A stretch of DNA of 64,000 nucleotides from Nitrosotalea sp. (lineage in GTDB: Bacteria; Chloroflexota; Dormibacteria; Dormibacterales; Dormibacteraceae), in NCBI GenBank assembly GCA_035687505.1, contig DASRWV010000087.1:7204-71203 (forward strand), in the 5' to 3' direction. Of this stretch, positions 31,666-57,861 are shown in pieces (within the stretch, counting starts at the first letter, position 1; each line of letters starts with the position of its first letter). The notes beneath the pieces were generated by a model. The model saw nothing but the letters and a program-made list of their open reading frames with translations, searched no databases and was not told the DNA's origin. Made by a program: the position numbers and the translations under genes.

Positions 31666-31895
31666 AGCAGGAGCCGAAGAAGGCACCACCGGCTTTGCTC
31701 CTCCGGTGGGAGGCCCTCGACACCTGGAAGCAGCTGGCGATCTCTTTTCCTGTGTTTGCGATCGTCACGTTCCTGATCAATATCGGGCCCTTCTACCAGC
31801 CAGTGCCGCGCTCGATTCTCTACGGCCTGTTCGAGGGCGCCGTGTTGAGCGGGCTGTTGGCGGTAGTGTCCAGGAGCGAACGCGCGAAGCGCTGA
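31662..31895 (+). CDS. Small membrane protein (77 aa), translationally coupled to otsB
   Basis: ATGA overlap with the otsB stop. Two predicted TM segments. Confidence 0.5.
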   Translation: MKQEPKKAPPALLLRWEALDTWKQLAISFPVFAIVTFLINIGPFYQPVPRSILYGLFEGAVLSGLLAVVSRSERAKR

Positions 31896-31902
31896 GCTTT
31901 CT

Positions 31903-31974
31903 TTGGCGCCAATTACGTCGTTTTGGCGCCAAATCGACCTCTCGCTAGCGCCTACTCCGTGGTTTTGGCGCCAA
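31903..31974. repeat. Three copies of the 10-bp palindrome TTGGCGCCAA
   Basis: Copies at 31903-31912, 31923-31932 (12-bp palindrome TTTGGCGCCAAA) and 31965-31974. Spacings are 20 and 42 bp. The third copy lies in the last codons of otsA. Confidence 0.7.
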
Positions 31975-33541
31975 CTGCACCTAGTTCAGGGCGAGGCGAT
32001 TCAACCTGTAACCGGGCGCTCTGGCCCGGGCCGACCAGATCTCGCAGGTCCTGCACCTGGTTGCTGATCCACCGCGCGATATCGTTGGCGCGCACGACCT
32101 CCCGCGCGGCCTCGTTCCTGCGGTGACGCTCTTCAGGCGCCATCGTGAGGCCTGCATATAGCGCTGCGGCGGTGGCCTCGACGTCGAAGGGATTGATCGA
32201 CAGCACGTGCTCCCGCAGCTCCTCGTGTGCGCCGGCGTTCTCCGACAGCACGATCACCCCGTCGTGTTGGTTGACCAGCGCACCCTCTTTCACCACGAGA
32301 TTCAGCCCGTCGTAAACCGGGTTCACGAGCAGCACGTCGAAGTTCTTCAACGCGGCGATGGCTTTGCGCTCGCTTTCGGCGATCTCGAGCCGGATGGGCA
32401 CCCACTCGTACTCACCGAATTTCTGGCCGAACTCACTGTTGATCCGGCCCGCGGACTGGCGGATCTGGCGAAGGTAGCGGCTGTAAACCGCGACGTCCTG
32501 CCGCGACGGCTGTAGAAAGGCCCAGAACTGGACCTTGCCGCGCAGCTCCGGGTGATACCGCAGCAGCTTCTCGTACGCGATGAATCCCCGCACGATGTTT
32601 TTGGACGGATCTGTGCGGTCGATGCGCGCGATCAGATATTGAGGACGCCAATGCGAGAGGTCGTGCTCCTGCCGCTTGACGCCCCGCGATTCGGCAAGGC
32701 GCATGGTCCTCTGAACGTCGACCGAGATCGGGTAGTGCCGCGCGTAGATCACGCGTCCGCCCGACACCACTGCCCGCTCGCGCTCATCGACCTGAAGGCC
32801 TCCGTTCTCCTCGCAGGTCAACAGAAAGTTTCGGACGTCGAGGCTTGACTGGAAGCCGACGATGTCGCAACCAAGGATGCCCTCCAGGATCGCGTCACGC
32901 ATTTCCTTGGGCAGCACCTTCCAGTACTGAGGGGTCGGCCACGGCACGTGCACGAAGAGCTGGATCACCGATGTCGGGAGCTCCTTTCTCACCATCTGCG
33001 GCACGAGATACAGCTGGTAGTCGTGAACCAGGACCAATGGTCGTTTCGTTGCTGCGCGAGAGACTTCCACGACCCTGGCGGCCATCAGCCGGTTCACCTC
33101 GACGTATCCCTCTTTCCAGGCCTGGTGTATGCGATCGTCGATGACCGGCTCGTTGCCGAGGTCCCACAGGTAGTGCTGGATGAACCACAGCACCGGGTTG
33201 GCGATCACCCCGTAGTACATGTCGTACTGCTCGCGCGTCGGCGTTGCGTAATGGAGCCGGCCGTTCGAGTTCGGCAAGGTCACCGGCGCTGACACCCCGT
33301 TCTTTTGCGCCAGCGCGCGCTCCTCGTCGGTGCGCGCGCACGCCACCCAGTCCGCCCCTGTCGCGTCGGCCATCGTGAGCAGTGCTGTGATCACGCCACC
33401 GGCCCCGCGTGTGAACCCGCCGTCGGGCTTGGGCTCATGAGGCGCTCGGTTGCTGACCAGCACAGGGGAGTAGTCGGGGAGCGTGCGCGTCACGTACGCG
33501 CGCAGCGGTGACCCTCGGACTTCTTTTCGTCGGTCGCCCAA
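31952..33541 (-). CDS. otsA: Alpha,alpha-trehalose-phosphate synthase (GT20)
   Basis: PVLVSNRAP...GGVITAL..., LVHDYQLYLVP and other GT20 blocks. The TTG start is separated from the upstream stop codon by 2 nt. Confidence 0.9.
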   Translation of the reverse strand: MGDRRKEVRGSPLRAYVTRTLPDYSPVLVSNRAPHEPKPDGGFTRGAGGVITALLTMADATGADWVACARTDEERALAQKNGVSAPVTLPNSNGRLHYATPTREQYDMYYGVIANPVLWFIQHYLWDLGNEPVIDDRIHQAWKEGYVEVNRLMAARVVEVSRAATKRPLVLVHDYQLYLVPQMVRKELPTSVIQLFVHVPWPTPQYWKVLPKEMRDAILEGILGCDIVGFQSSLDVRNFLLTCEENGGLQVDERERAVVSGGRVIYARHYPISVDVQRTMRLAESRGVKRQEHDLSHWRPQYLIARIDRTDPSKNIVRGFIAYEKLLRYHPELRGKVQFWAFLQPSRQDVAVYSRYLRQIRQSAGRINSEFGQKFGEYEWVPIRLEIAESERKAIAALKNFDVLLVNPVYDGLNLVVKEGALVNQHDGVIVLSENAGAHEELREHVLSINPFDVEATAAALYAGLTMAPEERHRRNEAAREVVRANDIARWISNQVQDLRDLVGPGQSARLQVESPRPELGAVGAKTTE

Positions 33542-36009: not shown

Positions 36010-37716
36010 ATGACGCGATCCTCGAAGATTCGTTCTTTCGGCGCGGTCTTGTGCGCAGCTGCCATAGCAGCGGCGTGCGGCCCGACGTCCACACCTTCGG
36101 AAGCGCTCGCCGCAGACCAGACCTATCGCTTCGGGATAACGGACGACGTCACCAGCATCGACCCCGGCCACGTAATTACGGCGGTAGACATCGTCGTCAT
36201 CTCTGAAGTGTTCACAGGGCTGTACAAATTCGACAACAACCTGAAGATCCAGCCTTCCGGCGCCACGGCTTTGCCAACAATCTCGCCCGACGGCAAGACC
36301 TGGACGTTCAACCTTCGGAAGGACATGGTGTTCTCCAACGGCGACAAGATCACCTCGGCTGACTGGGTCTACAGCTGGACCCGGACGCTTCGGCTCAACG
36401 ACGCGTACGCGAGCAACCTCGAACCGATCATGGGTGCCACCGACGTCGAGGCAGGCACCGCAACCAAGATCGCCGGACTTTCCGCGCCAGACGCCTACAC
36501 GCTCGTCGCCAAGCTCGTTGCGCCAGCCGGTTACTGGCTGACCGAGCTCGCCATGCCTGTCGCGACCGAGGTCGTGGACCAGAAGGTCATCACCGCGGCT
36601 GGTGAAGACACATGGACCAACTCTCCCTCGACCTACATCGGCAGTGGCCCGTTCAAGATGACCCAGCGCACCCCCAAGGCCGCGATGGACTTTCAGCCGG
36701 TCAAGAACTGGTGGGGCGGCGACACCGGGAAGCTGACCGCTGTCCACATCGATATCGGCCTCGACGACGTCTCCCGGGTCAAGAAGTTCGAGTCCGGCGG
36801 CTACGAGGTAGTCGGTCCGGCCAACAGCCAGCCCGGGCCCGACGACGTCCTCCGCTACAGGAACGACCCGATCAAGAGCAAGCTGCTGAACGTTTATGTT
36901 GGCGGCCGCACAACGGCCGTCGGCTTCAACTTCACCAAGGGCCCCTTCGCCCAGAAGCCTGGGGTCACTCCGGGCGACTCGACCGTCAACGCCAGCGACC
37001 CCGGCCTGGACGGCCGGAGGGCGTTCTCCATGGCGATCGACCGCGTCCAACTCGCCGACATCGCTTGCGCACACGCAGTCACCTGCCAGCCGGCGTACGG
37101 CGGGCCCATTACCAAGGGCTTCATTGCCTACGCTGGTGATAACACTGACACCTACGCCAAGTTCGACGCAGGGGCGGCCAAGGCCCTCTACACGAAATGG
37201 GACCCGGACGGCAGCAAGGTCAAGGGCCTCGAGTACCGCTACAACACGAGCGCCGGCAATACAAAGATCGCGACGAACCTACAGGCTCAGTGGAAGCAGA
37301 ACCTGGGCGTTGACGTCAAGCTCGTCCCGTCTGACTTCCCGACGCTCGTCAAGGACCGCCAGGGCAAGAAGACGATTATCTTCCGCGAGAGCTGGGGCAT
37401 CGACTACGACCATCCCCAGGACTGGTTCGACAACCTGTTCATCTGCTCGCAGGCCAAGGTCGGACGCGGCAACAACGAGGGGTACTGCAACCCCGCGCTG
37501 GACGCCATCGTTTCGGCTGCCAACGCTAAGCCGATCACCGACCCCGCGACGGTCGCCGAGTACAACAAAGCGAGCAAGATGATCGTCAACGACGTAGTTT
37601 GGGCGACGCTCTTTTACGGCACGCAGCCGTACTTGACCCAGACCTATGTCAGGGGCACCGGCTACAACGGCCTCTACGACTACAACTGGGAGGGCATCCG
37701 GCTCCTCCAGCACTAA
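36010..37716 (+). CDS. ABC transporter substrate-binding protein, family 5 (peptide/nickel, DppA/OppA-like)
   Basis: Signal/lipoprotein-like N-terminus (AAIAAACG). Family-5 fold. SD GAGGAGG upstream. Confidence 0.85.
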   Translation: MTRSSKIRSFGAVLCAAAIAAACGPTSTPSEALAADQTYRFGITDDVTSIDPGHVITAVDIVVISEVFTGLYKFDNNLKIQPSGATALPTISPDGKTWTFNLRKDMVFSNGDKITSADWVYSWTRTLRLNDAYASNLEPIMGATDVEAGTATKIAGLSAPDAYTLVAKLVAPAGYWLTELAMPVATEVVDQKVITAAGEDTWTNSPSTYIGSGPFKMTQRTPKAAMDFQPVKNWWGGDTGKLTAVHIDIGLDDVSRVKKFESGGYEVVGPANSQPGPDDVLRYRNDPIKSKLLNVYVGGRTTAVGFNFTKGPFAQKPGVTPGDSTVNASDPGLDGRRAFSMAIDRVQLADIACAHAVTCQPAYGGPITKGFIAYAGDNTDTYAKFDAGAAKALYTKWDPDGSKVKGLEYRYNTSAGNTKIATNLQAQWKQNLGVDVKLVPSDFPTLVKDRQGKKTIIFRESWGIDYDHPQDWFDNLFICSQAKVGRGNNEGYCNPALDAIVSAANAKPITDPATVAEYNKASKMIVNDVVWATLFYGTQPYLTQTYVRGTGYNGLYDYNWEGIRLLQH

Positions 37717-39671: not shown

Positions 39672-40675
39672 CCGCTCCTCTGCTCGAGGTCAAGAATCTA
39701 ACTACGGAGTTCGGCAACTCAGCCGGGCGCGTGCGCGCCGTCGACGGGATCAGCTTCGACATGGACCGAGGCGAGACGCTGGGCATCGTCGGGGAGTCGG
39801 GCAGCGGCAAATCCATGACCGCGCTGTCGATCCTCAACCTCGTCCCCGAACCCGGGAAGATCACCGGCGGCAAGATCCTGTTCAAGAATCGCGACGTCGT
39901 GACAATGACGTCGGGCGAGCTGCTCGAGTATCGGGGCGGCGACGTGGCGATGATCTTCCAGGATCCGATGACCTCGCTCAACCCTGTCCTGCGCGTGGGT
40001 TTTCAGATCGAGGAAGCGATGCGTGCGCACTCGCGCTTCGACAAGAAGCAAGCACGTGACCGAGTGGTCCCTCTGCTGGAGCGCGTGCGCATACCGTCAC
40101 CGAAGCAGCGCGCACGCGACTTTCCGCACCAGTTCAGCGGAGGTATGCGCCAGCGCGCGATGATCGCCATGGGACTATCGAACGAGCCCTCTCTGCTCAT
40201 CGCTGACGAGCCAACTACGGCGCTCGACGTGACAGTGCAGGCGCAGATCCTGGAGCTCTTGAAGGATCTCAACCGCGAGTTGGGGACGGCCATTATCCTG
40301 ATCAGCCACAACGTCTCCGTGATCTCCAGCCTCTGCACCCGCGTCATGGTGATGTACGCCGGCCGGATCGTTGAGTCGGGGCCGACTCGGCAGGTGTTCG
40401 ATCATCCTCAGCACCCATACACGTGGTCGCTGCTGCGCTCGGTGCCGCGCCCCGACGAGCGCCGGCATGAGAGGCTGGTCAGCATCCAGGGCATGCCGCC
40501 GGACCTTTCTCGGCTGCCGACGGGCTGCACGTTCCACCCTCGCTGTGAGTTCAAGGTCGAACGGTGCACTCGCGAGGAGCCGCCGCTGGAGGAGGTCGGT
40601 CCTGCGCAGGACGCCCGTTGCTGGGTGCTGATGAAGAACGTCTCCCAAGAGTCGCGCGAAGCGGTCAAGAAATGA
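39584..40675 (+). CDS. ABC transporter ATP-binding protein (DppD/OppD-like)
   Basis: Walker A GESGSGKS, signature FSGGMRQR, Walker [14 protein letters not shown]-terminal oligopeptide domain. Start uncertain: ATG 39584 would overlap the permease gene by 88 nt. Confidence 0.85.
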
Positions 40676-41682
40676 GCCAGCCTCTGGCCGTGGTCCCCAA
40701 GCCCACTGGCGGGCCGCTGGTCAGGGTCGTCGATGTCACCAAGCACTTTCCGACCGGAGGCACGTTCGGCCGCGGCGCGGTGGTCCGGGCCGTGGACGGA
40801 GTGAGCTTCGACATCGCGCCGGGCGAGACCCTTGGACTGGTGGGCGAGTCGGGATGTGGAAAGTCCACGCTGGGGCGCGTGATCATGCAGCTGCAGCCGG
40901 CCACGTCCGGCTCGATCCAGTTCGAGGGTCGGGAGCTCACCAAGATGCACGGGAACGAGCTGCGCATGGTGAGGCAGCGGATGCAGATCATCTTCCAGGA
41001 TCCATACGCATCCCTCAACCCGAGGATGACGATCGGCGACATCGTCGCCGAGCCCCTGCAGAACTTCGGCCTTGGCAACAAGCGAGACCGCGAGAAGCGT
41101 GTGCAAGAGGTGATGCGGGTCTGCGGGCTCAATCCCAATTTCACGAACCGCTATCCGCACGAGTTCTCTGGTGGCCAGAGGCAGCGTATCGGGATCGCCC
41201 GCGCGCTGGTCCTCACGCCGAGCCTCATCGTCGCCGACGAGCCCATCTCCGCTCTTGACGTATCGATCCAGGCGCAGATCGTGAATCTGCTCGAGGATCT
41301 CCAGGACGAGTTCAAGCTGACCTATCTGTTCATCGCCCACGACCTCTCGGTGGTGCGCCATGTCAGCGACCGGGTGGCGGTCATGTACCTCGGCAAGATC
41401 GTCGAGATCGCGACGAGCCGGGACGTTTACGACACCCCGCTCCATCCTTATACGAAGGTCCTGCTGAGCTCGATCCCGAACCCAAACCCTGAGATCGAGG
41501 CGAGCCGCAAGCCCATCCTGCTGAAGGGCGAGATCCCGTCGCCGATCAACCCGCCGAGCGGATGCCGCTTCCACACGCGATGCCCGATCGCGCAGCTGCC
41601 GATCTGCTCCGAGGTCGAGCCGCCGCTGGAGATGAAGGCCAACGGGCACGTCGCGGCGTGCCACTTCGCCGGGAAACTCTAA
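40672..41682 (+). CDS. ABC transporter ATP-binding protein (DppF/OppF-like)
   Basis: ATGA overlap with the upstream stop. [29 protein letters not shown]. Confidence 0.9.
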
Positions 41683-41762: not shown

Positions 41763-43394
41763 CTAGTGCTTCAGAATCCGCGCGTTTGTCCATGAGAAGT
41801 CGTACAGCGCGTTGCCGCCCACGCCCAGCACGTACGAGTGGACGAGGTACTGCTGCACGCCGTAGAGGAGCGGCGCGTAGATCGAATCGTCGATCAGCAT
41901 GTGGCCCACAGTCTTGTAGTCGGCCAGGCCGTCTTTGAGCGGCCCAGCGTCGGCAAGGCTTACAAACTTGTCGACTCGGGGGTCTGAATAGCACGACCCC
42001 GATGACGGGGCCCCGGTGACGAACAGGTAATCGAACCAGTCCTGGGGATGGTCGTAGTCGGCGCTCCAGCTCTGGCGGAACATCGGGTACGCGCACTTGC
42101 CATTGCGGTTATCGAAGAAAGTCTTCCGATCGACGTCCACGCAGGTGACCGTGACGCCGAGATTCTTTTTCCACTGCGCCGAAAGGTTGTCGCATACCGC
42201 TTTGTTGAATGGGTTTGTGTCATAGCTGTACGTGAGCCCTTTCACTTTCGTGCCGTTCGGGTCCCACGCCAGGTATTGCGTCTTCGCCGCGGCCGCGTCG
42301 AACTTTGCGTTGCTGTCGGCATCGTCGCCGACATAGCCCTGTAGTCCCTTGCTGATCAACCCGCCGGTCGCGAGGGCACACGCCGTCTTCTGGTTGCAGA
42401 GCGCGTCGACAAGCGCGTTGCGGTCGATAGCGGTGCTGAACGCGTGGCGCCCCGGCCGCCCCGCGTCGATGTCGGCGAACGGTCCGCTGCGCAGGTTGAA
42501 GCCGACCCAGAAGGTGAGGCCGATCGGCACGAGGTTGAGCTGGCTCTTGAGGGTGGCATCCGAGGTGTACCGCGTCGCCGCGGCCGGAGGCAGTCCCTGG
42601 CGTCCGTAACCGACGAGGCTGAACGCGCCGGACTCGTACTGGGACACCTGGGCGACAGGGTCCGCGATGACTTCCAGGTGCACCCGCGTCAGCTTGCCGG
42701 TCGACCCCCCGTACCAATCGGGGACCGGCTGGAAGTCCATCGACTGGCCCGGTGCGCGAGCGGTCATGCGAAAAGGTCCGCTTCCGATGAGCGTCTCGGG
42801 TTTGCTGAACCATGCGTTCTCACCCGCTGACGCGACGACTTTCTGGTCGACCACCCAGAAAGGCCACAGACCCAAAAGGGTCGTGAAATAGCCCGCGCGC
42901 TTGGTCAGGGTGGCGGTGAAGGTGTAATCGTCTGTCTTGACGAGCCCGCTCATCTGGCTGGCCCGCCCCGACGCGACCGGGTCATAGCCGGCGACGATGT
43001 TGAACAGCCCCGCGTAGTCGCCCTGCTTTGCAGCTGCGCGATTCCAGCTGTAGATGAAGTCGTCCGCAGTGATGGCGTCGCCGTTGGAGAAGTGCGCGTT
43101 GCGACGCAGATGAAAGGTATAGGTGCGGCCGTCGTCGGACATCGCCGGTGGGTCAGTGGCCAGGTCTGGTAGCACGTGCAGCTGGCTGTCGAATTTGTAG
43201 AGGCCCGAGAAGACGTTGCGGAAGATGTCCACCTCCGCCGCGGTCGAGATGAGCGCGGGATCGAGGTCGGAGATGTCCGTTGCTATGGGAAAGCTCAGCG
43301 TCTGGTCCGCCGCCAGCGGCTCCGGAGGTGGTGGGGAGCTGGTCGGTTTGCCGACGATGAGCACGAGCAGGAGCGCGATCAGCGCGATTGCCAC
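41763..43394 (-). CDS. Second family-5 ABC substrate-binding protein, TM-anchored (true start probably upstream of 43394)
   Basis: Paralog of the 36010 protein (PLAADQTLSFPIATDISDLDPA vs ALAADQTYRFGITDDVTSIDPG). The GTG 43394 start would leave the signal anchor without a charged n-region. Confidence 0.8.
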   Translation of the reverse strand: MAIALIALLLVLIVGKPTSSPPPPEPLAADQTLSFPIATDISDLDPALISTAAEVDIFRNVFSGLYKFDSQLHVLPDLATDPPAMSDDGRTYTFHLRRNAHFSNGDAITADDFIYSWNRAAAKQGDYAGLFNIVAGYDPVASGRASQMSGLVKTDDYTFTATLTKRAGYFTTLLGLWPFWVVDQKVVASAGENAWFSKPETLIGSGPFRMTARAPGQSMDFQPVPDWYGGSTGKLTRVHLEVIADPVAQVSQYESGAFSLVGYGRQGLPPAAATRYTSDATLKSQLNLVPIGLTFWVGFNLRSGPFADIDAGRPGRHAFSTAIDRNALVDALCNQKTACALATGGLISKGLQGYVGDDADSNAKFDAAAAKTQYLAWDPNGTKVKGLTYSYDTNPFNKAVCDNLSAQWKKNLGVTVTCVDVDRKTFFDNRNGKCAYPMFRQSWSADYDHPQDWFDYLFVTGAPSSGSCYSDPRVDKFVSLADAGPLKDGLADYKTVGHMLIDDSIYAPLLYGVQQYLVHSYVLGVGGNALYDFSWTNARILKH

Positions 43395-43697
43395 CCCTGC
43401 GGCCGCGGGGCGGTAATGGCGCAGCCCTGAACGGGCCGGAGGCGGCGGTGCCGCCGGAGCCTCGGGCTCAACTGGTGCCGCGGCCTCCTCGGGCTCGGGC
43501 GGCGGGGCAGGCTCTTCGAGTTGAGTCGGCAGAGCGCCTTCCTCGGGCTCAGGCGTTGGGACTGCCTCCGCGGGTTCAGCCGGCGGAGCCGGCTCTTCAG
43601 GCTCGGGAGGTGCCGGTGGCTCGTTGAGCTCAGCAGCCGGCGCCGGCTCTTCGGGCTCGGGAGGCGGGGTCGGGGCCTTGGGATCAGACAGTGAGGA
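43395..43697 (-). repeat. In-frame Pro/Glu-rich repeat tract upstream of the binding-protein ORF
   Basis: About 100 open codons in the same frame as 41763..43394 encode four P-x-P-(P)-EPEE units. No ATG/GTG/TTG in frame. Confidence 0.6.
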
Positions 43698-44861: not shown

Positions 44862-44938
44862 GCCGGCGTAGCTCAGCTTGGCAGAGCAACGGTCTTTTAA
44901 ACCGATGGTCCAGGGTTCAAATCCCTGCGCCGGCACCA
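44862..44938 (+). tRNA. tRNA-Lys (anticodon UUU), CCA encoded
   Basis: Acceptor GCCGGCG/CGCCGGC, D-arm GCTC..GAGC, anticodon loop CTTTTAA, T-arm CAGGG-TTCAAAT-CCCTG, discriminator A, then CCA. One A-A mismatch at position 27:43. Confidence 0.9.
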
Positions 44939-48535: not shown

Positions 48536-52772
<4,237 letters not shown>

Positions 52773-52773
<1 letters not shown>

Positions 52774-53135
52774 TGGCCGCTGTGCAAACCGCCCGGGAAC
52801 GAACATCCCCCGCCATCGCGACCACACCGCCGTGGGTCTGGGTAGTGCTTGTGTTCGGGGCGGGGGTGATGGTCGCTTGGGCCTGGTTCATCCTCGGTTT
52901 TCTTTCCGAGCCGTCAGCAGTAGGCCGGATACGCGTCGTCCTCCTCACGTCCATTGCCTACTCGGCTGGTTCCGCCGTGGTCGGCGTGATCGGCGCGTTC
53001 GGTCTGATCAGGCGCCGACGGTGGGCTGGCACCGTGTCGGTGATCGCCTCGGCCGCCATGACGCTCACCATCGTCGGCGCCATCGCGGGGATTCCCGCTC
53101 TGCTCGGTCTGATGTCGCCTCGCCGATCTCCATAG
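52773..53135 (+). CDS. Small membrane protein (120 aa)
   Basis: TAATG overlap with the ligA stop. Three to four hydrophobic segments. Confidence 0.5.
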
Positions 53136-53140
53136 AGGTG

Positions 53141-53334
53141 AGTGTCCTGCCCCGGAAGGTCCTTGCGTCTTCATCGGCCCAGGCGGCCGGGCGCCTGCGG
53201 CGCTGAAGCCGGCGTCGCCTCCTGCGCGCGCTCAGTCACGCATCTAAGCGATGCGCTCCCTCGCGTGCTCGTCGTCTCCTTGGCTCCGGCCGCCGGTGCC
53301 GCGAATACGCTGCGGACCTCCGGTGCAGGACACT
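53141..53334 (+). repeat. Structured ~190-nt repeat element, copy A (candidate cis-regulatory leader, ncRNA or MITE-like)
   Basis: Long imperfect inverted-repeat arms closed by AGTGTCCTGC/GCAGGACACT. It fills the gap before gatC. The paralogous copy is at 56872-57063. Confidence 0.75.
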
Positions 53335-53341
53335 TAGCCCA

Positions 53342-53635
53342 ATGCCGCTTTCGCGTGATGAGGTCCGCCATGTCGCCATGCTCGCGCGTCTTGGCCTCGA
53401 GCCCGGCGACGAGGAGTTCTATGCCGAGCAGCTGAGCGGCATCCTCGCGCACATCGACCGGCTGCAGCAGCTGGACACCGACTCGATCCCGCCGACCGCG
53501 CAGGTGGTCGAGGTCGCCAACACATTGCGCGAGGACGTGCCGCGCCCTGGTCTGAGCCAGGCCGAGGCGCTCGCCAACGCGCCCGCGGCGGTGGACGGAT
53601 TCTTCCGCGTGCCCTCGATCCAGGAGGAGGCGTGA
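53342..53635 (+). CDS. gatC: Asp/Glu-tRNA(Asn/Gln) amidotransferase subunit C
   Basis: MPLSRDEVRHVAMLARLGL...QLDTD is typical of GatC. 4-nt overlap with gatA. Confidence 0.9.
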   Translation: MPLSRDEVRHVAMLARLGLEPGDEEFYAEQLSGILAHIDRLQQLDTDSIPPTAQVVEVANTLREDVPRPGLSQAEALANAPAAVDGFFRVPSIQEEA

Positions 53636-55095
53636 CCAACCTCACCGAGCTGACGATCAGGGAGGCGGCGAAGCAACTGCGCCTTCACTCGTTCTCGGCG
53701 GCCGAGCTGGTGACGGCGCACATAGACCAGATCGAGAAGCTCGATCGTCGCGTGAAAGCCTTCCTTCGGTTCACCCCCGAGCTGTGGGAGAAGCAGGCGG
53801 AAGAAGCCGACGCGCGGATCAACAACGGTGACATGGGTCCGCTCGTCGGAATCCCGATGGCCGTCAAAGACGTGCTGTGCGTGCGTGGTGTGGAGACGAC
53901 GGCAGGCTCGCAGATCCTCCGTGGCTTCAAACCGCCGTACACCGGTACCGCGGTCTCGAGACTCTTCGATGCCGGCGCTGTGATGTTGGGCGTCACGAAC
54001 TGCGACGAGTTCGCGATGGGCAGCTCGACGGAGAACTCCGGCTATCACCCGACGCACAACCCCTGGGATCTCGACCGGGTCCCCGGAGGCAGCTCGGGCG
54101 GCAGCGCGGCTGCGGTGGCGTCCGGCGAAGCGATGATCGCGTTGGGCACGGACACCGGCGGTTCGATCCGCCAGCCGGCCGCCCTGTGCGGCGTCGTGGG
54201 CATGAAGCCGACGTACGGGCGCGTCAGCCGGTATGGCCTCATCGCGTTCGCGTCGAGTCTCGACCAGATCGGTCCATTTACTCGATCCGTCGAAGACGCG
54301 GCGATCGTGCTGGAGGCGATGGCCGGCCACGATCCCCTCGACGCGACCAGCTCCAACCGCCCCAACGATGTGCTCCGCGACCTGGAGACGGGCGTGAAGG
54401 GCATGAGACTCGGCGTGCCGCGCGAGTACTACCACGTCGAGGGCATCGAGCCGGCGGTGAAGGCTGCAGTCGACAAGGCGATCACGTCTTTTCGCAACGC
54501 CGGCGCGGAGATCGTCGACGTCACGCTGCCGCATACGGACTACGGGCTCGCCGCGTACTACATCATCGCGCCGGCCGAGTGCTCGTCCAACCTCGCGCGC
54601 TTTGACGGGGTGCGATATGGAATGTCCGTGGACGACGCGCAGAACATCACCGAGGCTTACATGCGCACTCGGCGCAAGGGCTTTGGCACCGAGGTCAGGC
54701 GGCGCGTGATGCTCGGCACCTACGCCTTGTCGAGCGGCTACTACGACGCCTACTACCTGAAGGCCCAGAAAGTGCGGACGCTGATCAAGCGGGACTTCGA
54801 CCTCGCGTTCGAGAAATGCGACGCGATCATCAGCGCAACCTCACCCACGGTCGCCTTTCCGATCGGGTCCAAGACGCAGGACCCTCTATCCATGTACCTC
54901 TGCGACGTGCTCACTCTTGGCGGCAACCTCGCCGGGCTGCCGGGGATCAGCGTGCCGTGCGGAATGTCAGAGGACTTGCTGCCGATCGGATTGCAGATCA
55001 TGGCTCCGCAGTGGCGTGAAGACGTTGCGCTGCGCGTCGCGCGCGCCTATGAGGTGGCCAGCGGCGTGAAGGCGGAGGTGGCGCCTGTTGTCTAG
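53632..55095 (+). CDS. gatA: Asp/Glu-tRNA(Asn/Gln) amidotransferase subunit A
   Basis: Amidase signature [12 protein letters not shown]...[10 protein letters not shown]. Confidence 0.95.
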
Positions 55096-56497
55096 CGCTC
55101 CGTGGGAAGTGGTGATTGGCATGGAGGTGCACGTCCAGCCGCGCACGCGCTCGAAAATGTTTTGTGGCTGCGCAGTCGGTCAGCTCGGCGACCCGCCCAA
55201 CTCCAACGTGTGCGAGGTCTGCCTGGGCATGCCCGGCACCTTGCCGGTCATCAACAAGGCAGCGGTCGAGGCATGCCTCAAGACCGCGCTGGCGCTCAAC
55301 TGCGAGATTCCGCGCCACACCAAGTTCGACCGCAAGAACTACATGTATCCCGACCTGCCGAAGGGCTACCAGATCAGCCAGTACGACCTGCCGATGAGCA
55401 TCAGCGGCTATCTCGAGCTCGACGGCCGCCGTGTGCGCGTCAGGCGCGTACATCTCGAGGAGGACACGGGCAAGCTCATCCACGCGGGAGACAAGCTGCA
55501 CCAGGCGCGGGAATCCTTCGTCGACCTGAACCGAGCAGGGGTGCCTTTGATGGAGATCGTCACGGAGCCGGACCTGCGCTCTGCCGACGAGGCGCGCGAC
55601 TACGCGGTCGCCCTGCGCACGCTGCTCCGGACGATCGGCGCCTCCGAGGCGGAGATGGAGAAGGGCCAGCTGAGGGCGGAGCCGAACATCTCGCTACGCC
55701 GCGCGGGGACGGAGGAGCTGGGCGTGAAGACGGAGCTCAAGAACATCAACTCGTTCCGCGCCCTTCACCGCGCCATCAGTTTCGAGGTGGCGCGCCAGAC
55801 CGAGGTTCTGGAGTCGGGTGGCAAGGTGCTGCAGGAAACGCGCGGCTGGTCGGACGCCGAGCAGCGCACTTTTTCGCAGCGCAGCAAGGAATTCGCCGAG
55901 GACTACCGCTACTTTCCCGAGCCCGACCTGCCTCCGCTGGAGATCGACGCGGCCTGGATCGAAGATCTTCGCCGCGCCCTGCCCGAGCTGCCCGGCGCGC
56001 GCCGGGGGCGGCTGGTCTCGCAGTACGCGCTGCCGGCGGCCGACGCTGTGCTGATCGCCGCCGACCGCGACCTCGCCGACCTCTTCGAGGCAGCTGTCGC
56101 GGCTGGGGCGGAGGCCAAGCCAGTGGCCAACTGGATCATCGGAGAGGTCGCGCCAACCGGCAAGATCCCGACTCCGGAGCACCTTGCAGAGCTCGTGAAG
56201 CTCGTCACGTCCGGGAACGTCACGCGTGACCAGGCGCGCGAGGTGCTCCTCGAGTCGGTCGAGACAGGCCTCTCACCGACCAAGATCGTCGCCGAGCACG
56301 GGTACGCACAGGTCAGTGACGAGTCCACCCTGCAGGATGAGGTCGAGGCCGTGATGGCGGCCAACCCGAGGGCGGTCGAGGACTACAGGGCGGGCAAGAA
56401 GCAGGCTCTCGGTGCGCTCATGGCCGAGCTCCGGAAGCGGACGCCGCAGGCCAACCCCAAGGTCGCGAGCGAACTCCTCCTCCGGTTACTGGGCTAG
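55088..56497 (+). CDS. gatB: Asp/Glu-tRNA(Asn/Gln) amidotransferase subunit B
   Basis: [12 protein letters not shown]...KMFCGC...[15 protein letters not shown]. The TTG start overlaps gatA by 8 nt. Confidence 0.95.
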
Positions 56498-56851
56498 GGG
56501 GCCACCCGGCCGGCGGGAGAGCCACGTGCTGTACACGAACAGACCAGCCCCGATCAGGTAGGTCGCCAAAGCGACGGCGACGAGGGCCCCGCCCACGAAC
56601 TCGGAGACGAAAGTGGTGAGGCCGAGCGCGACTATCGAAGCTCCCAGGCCGATCGCGGTCAAGCCCAAGAGGCGGACCACCCCCGGCGTAACTCGCGTGA
56701 TCGGACCGAGCATCCAGTCTCTGAACCAGCCCGGCAAGCTGCCCTGGACGACCAGGTACAGGCCGATTCCGAGCAAAGGCCCGCCAACCGCATAGGAAAT
56801 TCCAAGCACCACCCACCCCACGGCGGGCCATTTTAGCCAGAAACACCCCAT
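56486..56851 (-). CDS. Small membrane protein (121 aa)
   Basis: Four hydrophobic segments. The 3' end overlaps gatB by 12 nt, tail to tail. Confidence 0.5.
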
Positions 56852-56871
56852 TTTTGCTCTCCAGCTAGCCC

Positions 56872-57063
56872 AGTGTCCAGCCCCGGAATTCCTTGCGTCT
56901 TCGTCGGCCCGGGCGACCGGGCGCCTTTGGCGCTGAAGCCTGCGTCAAGGGGCCCGGCGCTGCGGAGTCACGCATCACGGATGCGCTCCTCCTTGCGCCA
57001 CCCTTTCCTTGGCTCCGGCCGCCAGTGCCGCGAATACGCTGCGGACCTCCGGTGCTGGACACT
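56872..57063 (+). repeat. Structured ~190-nt repeat element, copy B
   Basis: Same orientation as copy A. The 5' arm is 67/76 identical and the 3' arm 56/58 identical. Closed by AGTGTCCAGC/GCTGGACACT. Confidence 0.75.
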
Positions 57064-57069
57064 TGTCCC

Positions 57070-57861
57070 GTGCCCCTGCCGCCTGACCTCCACGTGCACA
57101 CCGAATGGTCGTGGGACGCTGCCCACGGCTCGATGGAGCGCAGCTGCGAGCGGGCGCTCCAGCTCGGCCTGCCCGGGATCGCCTTCACGGAGCACGCCGA
57201 CTTCGTCGTGATCCACGAGGGCCAGCACGGCCTCGATGTCGCGGGGTACCTCCAGGCGGTCGAGCAATGCCGGGCCCGGTTCAAGAACCTGCGCATCTTT
57301 TCCGGTGTCGAGCTCGGTGAGCCGCACTGGTTTCCCGACGAGACTGCAGCCGTCCTGGCCGCGGGCAAGCTGGATCGCGTGCTCGGCTCGATCCACTGTG
57401 TGCACCTGGACGGCAAGCCGGTCGACGCAAGCCAGTTTCGCGATCTGCCGCCTTCGGCATTTGGCGGCGCGGTGAGGGAGTTTTTCCGCGAGACGCTCGC
57501 CCTGGTCGAGAGCTCCCAGCAGTTCGAGGCGCTGGCGCATCTCGACTACCCCAAGCGCTACTGGCTGGAAGGCCAGGCTCCATATCGCGAAGAGGACTAC
57601 GAAGAAGACCTGCGCGCGATCCTCGTCGCCGCTGCGAAGCGAGGCCTGGTCCTCGAGGTGAACACGACCCGCGGCCGCACGCTGTGTCCCGACATCAAGG
57701 TGGTGCGCTGGTGGCACGAGGTGGGGGGGAAGGCCGTGCAGTACGGGAGCGACGCCCACCAGCCGGACAAGGTGGCCGAGGGCTTTCTGACGGCGACACA
57801 GATGGTCGAGTCGGTGGGGTTCAAGCCGGCGCGCGACCCCCTGGGGTTATGGCACCGCTGA
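57070..57861 (+). CDS. PHP-domain phosphoesterase (histidinol-phosphatase-like family)
   Basis: PPDLHVHTEWSWDA, FTEHAD, GVELG, GSIH and GSDAH metal-ligand blocks. Start is GTG 57070 or GTG 57052. The track start 56893 reads through repeat copy B. Confidence 0.8.
   Translation: MPLPPDLHVHTEWSWDAAHGSMERSCERALQLGLPGIAFTEHADFVVIHEGQHGLDVAGYLQAVEQCRARFKNLRIFSGVELGEPHWFPDETAAVLAAGKLDRVLGSIHCVHLDGKPVDASQFRDLPPSAFGGAVREFFRETLALVESSQQFEALAHLDYPKRYWLEGQAPYREEDYEEDLRAILVAAAKRGLVLEVNTTRGRTLCPDIKVVRWWHEVGGKAVQYGSDAHQPDKVAEGFLTATQMVESVGFKPARDPLGLWHR

Follow-up and report, generated by a model that had tools for sequence, protein, structure and literature searches.

A low-copy palindromic repeat inserted before gatC and other genes in Candidatus Dormibacteraceae

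Hairpin-forming elements such as the PATEs derived from IS200/IS605 and the REP/RAYT systems insert and excise without target duplication. Insertion of the IS200/IS605 type takes place 3' of a fixed 4-5-nt motif, involves subterminal hairpins and needs a Y1 (HUH) transposase. [quoted passage not shown] The ERIC/IRU elements of Enterobacteriaceae are imperfect palindromes of 127 bp that occupy intergenic regions in both orientations and have internal indel variants (PMC3184786, PMC10969869); elements of this type have TA flanks or target duplications (PMC3184786). The Correia elements of Neisseria, palindromes of ~100-160 bp often located directly 5' of genes, can supply outward promoters and form hairpins when transcribed (PMC3184786, PMC10969869), and REP2 of Neisseria lies directly upstream of open reading frames (ORFs), to which it brings a promoter and a ribosome-binding site (PMC3184786). 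Promoter-bearing elements placed directly upstream of genes are found among Correia elements, REP2 and other MITEs (PMC3184786, PMC10969869). Here, we describe a palindromic element that occurs twice in a 64,000-nt stretch of contig DASRWV010000087.1 (hereafter the window) from Dormibacteraceae, once before gatC and once before a PHP-domain gene. Our full-text literature search retrieved no paper on repeats or leaderless genes in Dormibacterota, and the family described here is apparently the first of intergenic palindromic repeats to be noted in that uncultured phylum.

Copies, occupied sites and empty alleles

The 206-nt non-coding gap between a 120-aa ORF (52773-53135) and the gatC ATG at 53342 (gap 53136-53341) had been described, in an earlier note made from the sequence alone, as a long imperfect hairpin whose closing helix contains the only Shine-Dalgarno (SD)-like motif before gatC. 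The pairings reported there are all present, and the minimum free energy (MFE) structure reproduces every one of them. The local hairpin CGCATC-TAAGC-GATGCG was confirmed, as was the location of AGGA (53327-53330) within the closing helix, 11 nt 5' of the ATG. The RNA of 53135-53345 is predicted to fold at -124.1 kcal/mol, compared with -92.8 +/- 4.3 kcal/mol in 200 dinucleotide shuffles (z = -7.24), none of which was as good. The reverse strand folds equally well, at -124.5 kcal/mol (z = -7.3); the fold alone is therefore no proof that the + strand RNA is the functional form. A second copy had also been announced, and it indeed lies 3,730 nt downstream, in the same orientation and with 82% identity to copy 1 (z of its fold, -5.1). 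The outermost helices of the two copies differ by a compensated T:A to A:T change, and the AGGA of copy 1 is TGGA in copy 2.

We searched for further copies in genomes and metagenomes. An exact-19-mer scan of 185,579 species genomes returned 15 loci, 14 of which were chance matches in unrelated phyla. The one true match, L009, is a Dormibacteraceae metagenome-assembled genome (MAG) with a full copy at the orthologous gatC site (L numbers denote fetched loci or contigs; w1 and w2 are copies 1 and 2 of the window). A 20-mer scan of the Joint Genome Institute (JGI) metagenomes gave four loci, three of them genuine: a copy upstream of recF, interrupted by the contig end (L021), a full copy between SCO1/senC and cox15 (L022) and a full copy between a VWA-domain gene and a pckA-like gene (L019; the pckA-side reading frame is on the minus strand, with a third-position G+C content, GC3, of 0.83). 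Orthologous loci, retrieved by way of homologues of GatA and SCO1, yielded a full copy at PHP (L037) and further full-length copies at SCO1/cox15 (L040, L041 and L043). Five insertion sites were thus seen, gatC, PHP, recF, cox15 and pckA-like. The 3' end of the element faces the gene at the first three and the 5' end faces it at cox15 and pckA, where the element is inverted.

Intact copies measure 192-264 nt and have inverted termini, AGTGTCC...GGACACT, that continue into a ~50-bp stem with small bulges. The centre is variable, with three hairpins, and copies differ by frame-breaking indels and whole inserted hairpins. We considered a conserved peptide and rejected it, since stops or indels in other copies interrupt the small ORFs of both strands. 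When all fetched loci (~0.6 Mb) were searched with a profile, no copies beyond those listed came up, and we found neither solo termini elsewhere in the window nor a larger element bounded by the same termini in the fetched loci; the family is thus low-copy and patchy. Viral contigs, plasmids, phages and Escherichia coli genomes gave no match to the element. Judged from its sequence, it is a low-copy, non-coding, palindromic insertion repeat limited to a sublineage of Candidatus Dormibacteraceae (phylum Dormibacterota). In the inverted copies (cox15 and pckA), the flank adjoining the 5' terminus contains a short inverted copy of that terminus, which creates a mini-hairpin at the junction, GGACAC-TAAGG-GTGTCC or CCGGGCAC-GCTCA-GTGCCCGG (L022 740-768, L040 7527-7547, L019 3476-3512). 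These mini-hairpins may represent an extension on the 5' side peculiar to a subfamily, or the footprint of an earlier event.

Filled and empty alleles were compared at three sites. At gatC, the window reads CCATAGAG, then the element GTGAGTGTCC...GGACAC, then TTAGCCCAATG, and the empty allele of L025 and L031 has CCATAGAG followed directly by TTAGCCTCGTG. At PHP, the window reads GCTAGCC, then the element CAGTGTCC...GGACAC, then TTGTCCCGTG; the empty alleles have GCTTAACC joined to TTGTCCCGTG in L023 and GGTAGCC joined to TTGTCCGGTG in L025. At cox15, the filled alleles of L022 and L040 consist of TAGACTTC(G/C)CAG, the element and AAGGGTGT(CC/TT)-GTG, and the empty allele of L038/39 is TAGACTTTCGCCTG-GTG. 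No target-site duplication was found at gatC, PHP or cox15. The left flanks are TAGAG, TAGCC, GGCCG (L009) and ACCCT (L022); on the other strand only a single T/A is in common.

The gatC site is empty in L025/L031 and in L026-L029, where the upstream stop codon lies ~10 nt from the gatC start, with no SD. By identity at the four-fold degenerate sites of ligA (0.70), L025/L031 is the closest relative of the window. Bootstrapped trees of UvrD+LigA and of LigA+GatA+GatB both placed L025 within a clade with the window, L023 and L030 (200/200), and L036/37 as the next outgroup (199-200/200). In L036/37, the gatC site holds a relic and the PHP site a full copy; L009 has a full copy at gatC, and L025 is empty at both sites. 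As L025 is nested within the element-bearing clade, its alleles reflect clean loss, unless three or four independent insertions hit the same nucleotide. They are most simply explained as clean losses. The junction sequences compared contain no microhomology that would explain loss by slippage, and we infer that the precise excision was mediated by an enzyme. Some contigs come from the same samples or studies (L040/L041 and L031/L035/L024; L038 and L023). The L025/L031 type, a population empty at both gatC and PHP, seems to have the element at cox15, and the L023 type seems to lack it there. Cut-and-paste movement would account for such a pattern, provided that these contigs share genomes.

The arms of the element are 85-96% identical among w1, w2, L009 and L037. 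For comparison, four-fold degenerate sites in the genes alongside show 58% identity for the window and L009 and 53-59% for the window and L036/37, the saturation predicted from composition being ~37%; around same-site copies, the non-coding flanks can hardly be aligned. Among w2, L009 and L037, the centres share 79-87% identity. That of w1, which has moved unusually far from the family consensus, is 69-72% identical to these three and 61-72% when all other copies are counted, and those of L019 and L022 have extra or replaced hairpins. The copies w2 and L037 share derived substitutions and the same junction, with flanking four-fold sites near saturation, and these shared derived states argue for descent from a single insertion.

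In the consensus structure of six copies, 95% of the cells are paired. Double changes occur in 10 of the 59 pairs, compared with 3.1 +/- 1.4 in shuffles (0/500 as high) and 0-2 when the 3' partners are slid. Two blocks, TCCTTGCGTCTTC and GTGCCGCGAATACGCTGCGGACCT, are conserved in sequence beyond the needs of pairing, with a conserved C.T mismatch between them. Both are intact in L037, which was found via a neighbouring protein rather than by the block sequence, and L040 has one block change, TACGCT to TATGCT, with a compensating change in the 5' arm. In 7/7 copies, four wobble positions read G.U on the + strand of the element irrespective of host-gene direction, and the cox15 copies, which are transcribed the opposite way, have no compensating wobble pattern. 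Sporadic G.U and A.C cells number about 10 and 7, respectively. The minus strand nevertheless folds 10-14 kcal/mol better in 6/7 copies, so that folds and wobbles together favour no one strand. The stem is thus maintained; the object of selection could be an RNA, a DNA hairpin or a protein-recognition site alike.

Boxes before the start codons and the outward terminus

In Actinobacteria and Deinococcus, leaderless transcription relies on a -10 box placed such that the transcript starts at the start codon. A TAnnnT hexamer is present 6-8 nt before the start codon in every empty allele: TAGAGT or TAAGCT at gatC (five lineages), TAGCCT or TAACCT at PHP (six lineages) and TAGACT at cox15 (L038/L039). 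The 121-aa gene divergent from PHP has TAGAAT or TAAAAT. The hexamer is also present in L028, which has no ORF upstream, and at PHP, where the divergent spacer is only ~26-77 nt. No SD was detected in the spacers of the empty alleles, and a window-wide scan revealed a modest excess of TAnnnT at spacers of 6-8 nt (seven cases, compared with ~1 per other bin). This box is probably the -10 element of a leaderless promoter in Dormibacteraceae.

Loci of leaderless appearance are found at 53133-53341, 56821-56835 and 57058-57072 of the window, and at L025 8236-8256, L023 14251-14280 and L038 7345-7361. In the element-less relatives L024, L026, L027 and L031-L035, gatC is called as a shortened gene of 85 aa because gene callers miss its SD-less start. 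In L001/L002, the PHP start is placed at a GTG inside the element (window 57052; 269 vs 263 aa). The TAAAAT box of the minus-strand 121-aa gene lies outside copy 2, which leaves it intact, and GTG 56821 rather than ATG 56851 is probably the true leaderless start of that gene, which codes for a small membrane protein.

Both the gatC and the PHP insertion separate the fifth base of the hexamer from the sixth (TAGAG^T and TAGCC^T). At gatC, the TAGAG remnant overlaps the stop codon of the 120-aa ORF, and the place of the ancestral TAGAGT box is occupied by GACACT, which overlaps the SD-like AGGA. In every copy at gatC or PHP (window, L009 and L037), the last five bases of the element and the retained T form GACACT 6-8 nt 5' of the start codon. 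When relics are included, GA[C/A]ACT is found at that distance in all element-bearing or relic gatC and PHP loci.

At gatC, the 5' arm and the centre are gone from the relics of L023 and L030, and in L036 only the 3' half is left. The L030 relic at PHP is a ~60-nt mini-hairpin made of the outer arms only. All of them keep ..GGTG[C/A][A/T]GGA[C/A]ACT at the same distance from the start codon, with GA[C/A]ACT 6-7 nt ahead of it. The gatC relic regions of L023 (9572-9710) and L036 (7875-8037) also contain internal direct repeats, GCGTCAGGCGCGCGGGTC and GGCCGCCGAATGAGCC, respectively, each present twice; in L036, the relic has TTAGC on its left side and TTACC on its right.

PHP has no co-directional upstream gene, and its promoter must thus be in the element or at its end. 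The gene-proximal terminus may well have taken over promoter function, ribosome-binding function or both, a proposal that we make tentatively and hold to be almost as probable as not. A sigma-70 promoter scan of the element yielded nothing convincing. The sole match, on the minus strand (56879-56850), includes part of the annotated start region around the ATG and probably has no function. We also discarded an internal promoter, TTGGCT-N20-TACGCT, as its spacer is too long and TACGCT is not kept in the relics.

Weighing the explanations

We are confident that the element is a dispersed mobile repeat and not a regulator specific to gatC. The earlier note had offered three options, a cis-regulatory leader, a 6S-like small RNA (sRNA) and a MITE-like repeat, of which the third alone survives. 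It had further described a pure MITE as having copies scattered in both orientations, including inside genes, with target-site duplications. Both orientations were found, without target-site duplications or intragenic copies among those seen. Under the first option, the element would be a leader acting in cis on gatCAB, either a translational riboswitch or an RNA thermometer, and its closing helix would sequester the ribosome-binding site of gatC. The paired AGGA of the MFE structure and the occurrence of the element upstream of gatC in L009 as well speak for it. The sequestration geometry does hold in copy 1 if the whole hairpin is transcribed; the regulatory device drawn from it is not supported. 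The gatC leader of the closest relative and those of four other lineages lack the element and are ~10 nt long with no SD, and the gatC relics of L023, L030 and L036 have no sequestering 5' arm. The same element precedes the unrelated genes PHP, recF, cox15 and pckA, inverted at the last two, and copy 2 has TGGA in place of AGGA. A search of both copies against Rfam 15 (gathering thresholds and E <= 10) returned chance-level hits only, with no family match. A gatCAB leader is thus barely tenable. A family of structured sRNA genes, rod-like as are 6S or Ms1, expressed from the + strand of the element and duplicated or mobilised, has in its favour the conservation far above neutral, the covariation of the stem, the four + strand wobbles and a conserved, single-stranded pyrimidine-rich stretch in the centre, CCACCCTTTCCTT. 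We nevertheless consider it highly unlikely. No 6S covariance model gave a hit at E <= 10, and the centre is a variable three-hairpin multiloop with inserted or replaced hairpins rather than a large conserved bubble. No promoter-like site was found upstream and no terminator-like site downstream, and the minus strand gives the better fold in nearly all copies. In addition, copies are lost or truncated without replacement in close relatives, and insertions interrupt the promoter boxes of other genes. The two blocks conserved beyond pairing, their C.T mismatch and the equal folding of both strands might instead reflect a host function at the level of DNA, the blocks being the site of a regulator or nucleoid protein, or the hairpin a cruciform insulator between transcription units. 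This possibility is very remote: a candidate binding protein is lacking, the blocks could equally serve a mobilising enzyme, and genes persist where relics have lost the blocks.

The explanation that we favour, and find on the whole somewhat probable, combines a mobile palindromic element with the substitution of a terminus for the box at gatC and PHP. The element would enter, and could leave, very short spacers just upstream of start codons without target duplication. At gatC and PHP, it would have landed inside the conserved TAnnnT box 6-7 nt before the start codon. Its outward end, ..GGTG[C/A][A/T]GGA[C/A]AC, would with the retained flanking T rebuild a -10-like GACACT at the same distance and add an SD-like AGGA, and expression of the downstream gene would now depend on the gene-proximal terminus.

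Several observations weigh against this explanation. The spacers are 10-80 nt long, so almost any tolerated insertion adjoins a start codon. The first T of TAnnnT is missing from GACACT, and nothing resembling a -35 element is apparent. The cox15 insertion follows an intact TAGACT box and brings or adjoins an SD-like AAGGG, which overturns any rule that the element always splits TAnnn^T. The whole hairpin, including the distal arm, is conserved above neutral, which a promoter role of one terminus fails to explain. The family is small (~8 independent copies), and a single exact 19-20-mer retrieved most of them, so the conservation seen in that block is biased. Neither a transposase nor an autonomous parent with the same termini was found in the ~0.6 Mb of fetched DNA. 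Lastly, L022 and L040 share their site and an unusual flank and yet differ in the central hairpin, the L022 variant being common to L019; this suggests exchange between copies and complicates the argument from selection.

Selfish or neutral DNA with no effect on neighbouring genes is the reading to which this last observation also lends support. The conservation would then reflect youth or homogenisation by a conserved master copy, and the positions would be the tolerated sites of a compact genome. In agreement with it, paralogues and cross-species pairs are as identical as same-site copies, the relics prove that single copies can decay, and the intergenic spacers are tiny. We regard it as unlikely all the same, since w2 and L037 share derived states and a junction despite near-saturated flanks and four-fold sites, the decay is asymmetric and always spares the gene-proximal terminus, and the only DNA upstream of the PHP gene is the element, so that the promoter lies within it or at its end. 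Distinctly unlikely, too, is that the element belongs to a type of mobile element not yet described, a seamless full-length hairpin that would insert into the -10/+1 region of leaderless promoters, perhaps targeting the single-stranded open complex, by means of an HUH/Y1-type enzyme or a recombinase, with ends selected as portable -10/SD modules for essential genes such as gatCAB.

The analysis removes a false riboswitch candidate from the essential operon gatCAB and explains several mis-annotated gene starts around the element. The unusual features of the family, established in part, are entry and loss without a trace, insertion between the -10 box and the start of apparently leaderless genes, decayed copies that keep the gene-proximal terminus, and conservation well above neutral. 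If they hold in complete genomes, the element would offer a natural experiment on mobile DNA rewiring promoters where mRNAs are leaderless.

Features of the window and comparison with known systems

The features of the two copies and their neighbours are collected in the table. The genes are arranged in the order uvrD/pcrA, ligA, 120-aa ORF, copy 1, gatC, gatA and gatB, followed by the 121-aa ORF (minus strand), copy 2, the PHP-domain gene and a tRNA U5-methyltransferase gene. Three soil-metagenome contigs (L001-L003) are identical in sequence to the window, and the closest named proteins are all from Candidatus Dormibacteraceae or Dormibacterota MAGs.

Table. Coordinates of the two copies, their parts and adjoining genes in the window
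Feature	Position	Strand	Basis
Copy 1, palindromic insertion element, 196 nt	53138..53333	+	Bounds of inserted segment relative to empty allele; fold
5' arm of long closing stem, copy 1	53141..53190	+	MFE structure, consensus structure, pair counts
Invariant block TCCTTGCGTCTTC in 5' arm, copy 1	53160-53172	+	Invariant alignment columns
Central domain, copy 1, three small hairpins including 53239-53255	53191..53285	+	Alignment
3' arm of closing stem, copy 1	53286..53334	+	MFE and consensus structure
24-nt block GTGCCGCGAATACGCTGCGGACCT in 3' arm, copy 1	53296-53319	+	Invariant in 6/6 aligned copies
GACACT, last five element bases and flanking T, 7 nt before gatC ATG	53329..53334	+	Junction comparison
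TAGAG, left remnant of split TAGAG^T hexamer	53133..53137	+	Empty allele of L025, TAGAGT-TAGCCTC-GTG
gatC, first gene of gatCAB	53342..53635	+	Pfam GatC domain on called genes of identical contigs
gatA	53632-55095	+	Pfam Amidase domain
gatB	55088-56497	+	Pfam GatB domain
Copy 2, 192 nt, divergent intergenic region between minus-strand 121-aa gene and PHP gene	56871..57062	+	Filled and empty alleles; fold
GACACT, 6 nt before PHP start GTG 57070, replacing ancestral TAGCCT/TAACCT box	57058..57063	+	Junctions
PHP gene	57070-57861	+	PHP domain confirmed (Pfam)
TAAAAT box, 8 nt upstream of GTG 56821	56830..56835	-	Orthologues with TAGAAT or TAAAAT there

The window harbours other repeats. An intergenic tandem pair of 42-nt units (31894-31977) contains palindromic boxes like TTGGCGCCAA, three good and one degenerate, and resembles a series of operators to which a dimeric DNA-binding protein would attach. 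A G+C-rich repeat with a period of 27 nt (43444-43669; at least seven units, ~63-73% identity) probably corresponds to a 9-residue repeat within a low-complexity part of a protein. Long inverted and direct similarities link 36331-37443 with 42018-43091 and 39731-39815 with 40783-40867 (up to 66 nt at 88%). They suggest paralogous genes in opposite and tandem orientation, whose motifs point to components of ABC transporters. The only Rfam hit of the window at gathering thresholds is a tRNA gene at 44862-44935.

The hairpin does not resemble an intrinsic terminator: it is followed by UUAGCCC, with no U tract, and 52700-57400 contains no terminator-like sites. With riboswitches and RNA thermometers, it shares the SD-like AGGA that copy 1 holds in a helix just upstream of a start codon. 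Unlike them, it is not conserved at the orthologous leader, precedes no single class of genes, has no fixed orientation and belongs to no known aptamer family. PATEs and REP/RAYT elements are similar in that filled and empty alleles are seamless, but the hairpin of the element is terminal, its left flanks have no common motif and no transposase was seen in the fetched loci. In common with classical MITEs, it is shorter than ~400 bp, has no coding capacity, has terminal inverted repeats and is polymorphic in presence or absence at five sites, whereas target-site duplications do not flank it at gatC, PHP or cox15.

In function and structure, ERIC, Correia elements and REP2 come nearest to it. 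Correia elements differ from it by their defined terminal inverted repeats, TA target duplication, tested sigma-70 promoters, IHF site and hundreds of copies; the Dormibacteraceae element is low-copy, without duplication, and its promoter activity is inferred from sequence. REP2 lacks terminal inverted repeats and does not form a palindrome over its full length, in contrast with the near end-to-end hairpin found here. ERIC elements have several features in common with it: both are non-coding imperfect palindromes that form a long stem-loop near genes, in both orientations and at a low to moderate copy number that varies between relatives. Nevertheless, the Dormibacteraceae element is longer (~195 bp), belongs to another phylum, has no TA flanks or target duplication of the ERIC type at the sites compared and gave no blastn match in E. 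coli (5,426 genomes; 20,395 records), which carry ERIC. Thus, the element is a new family of a known general kind, that of the palindromic intergenic repeats of other phyla.

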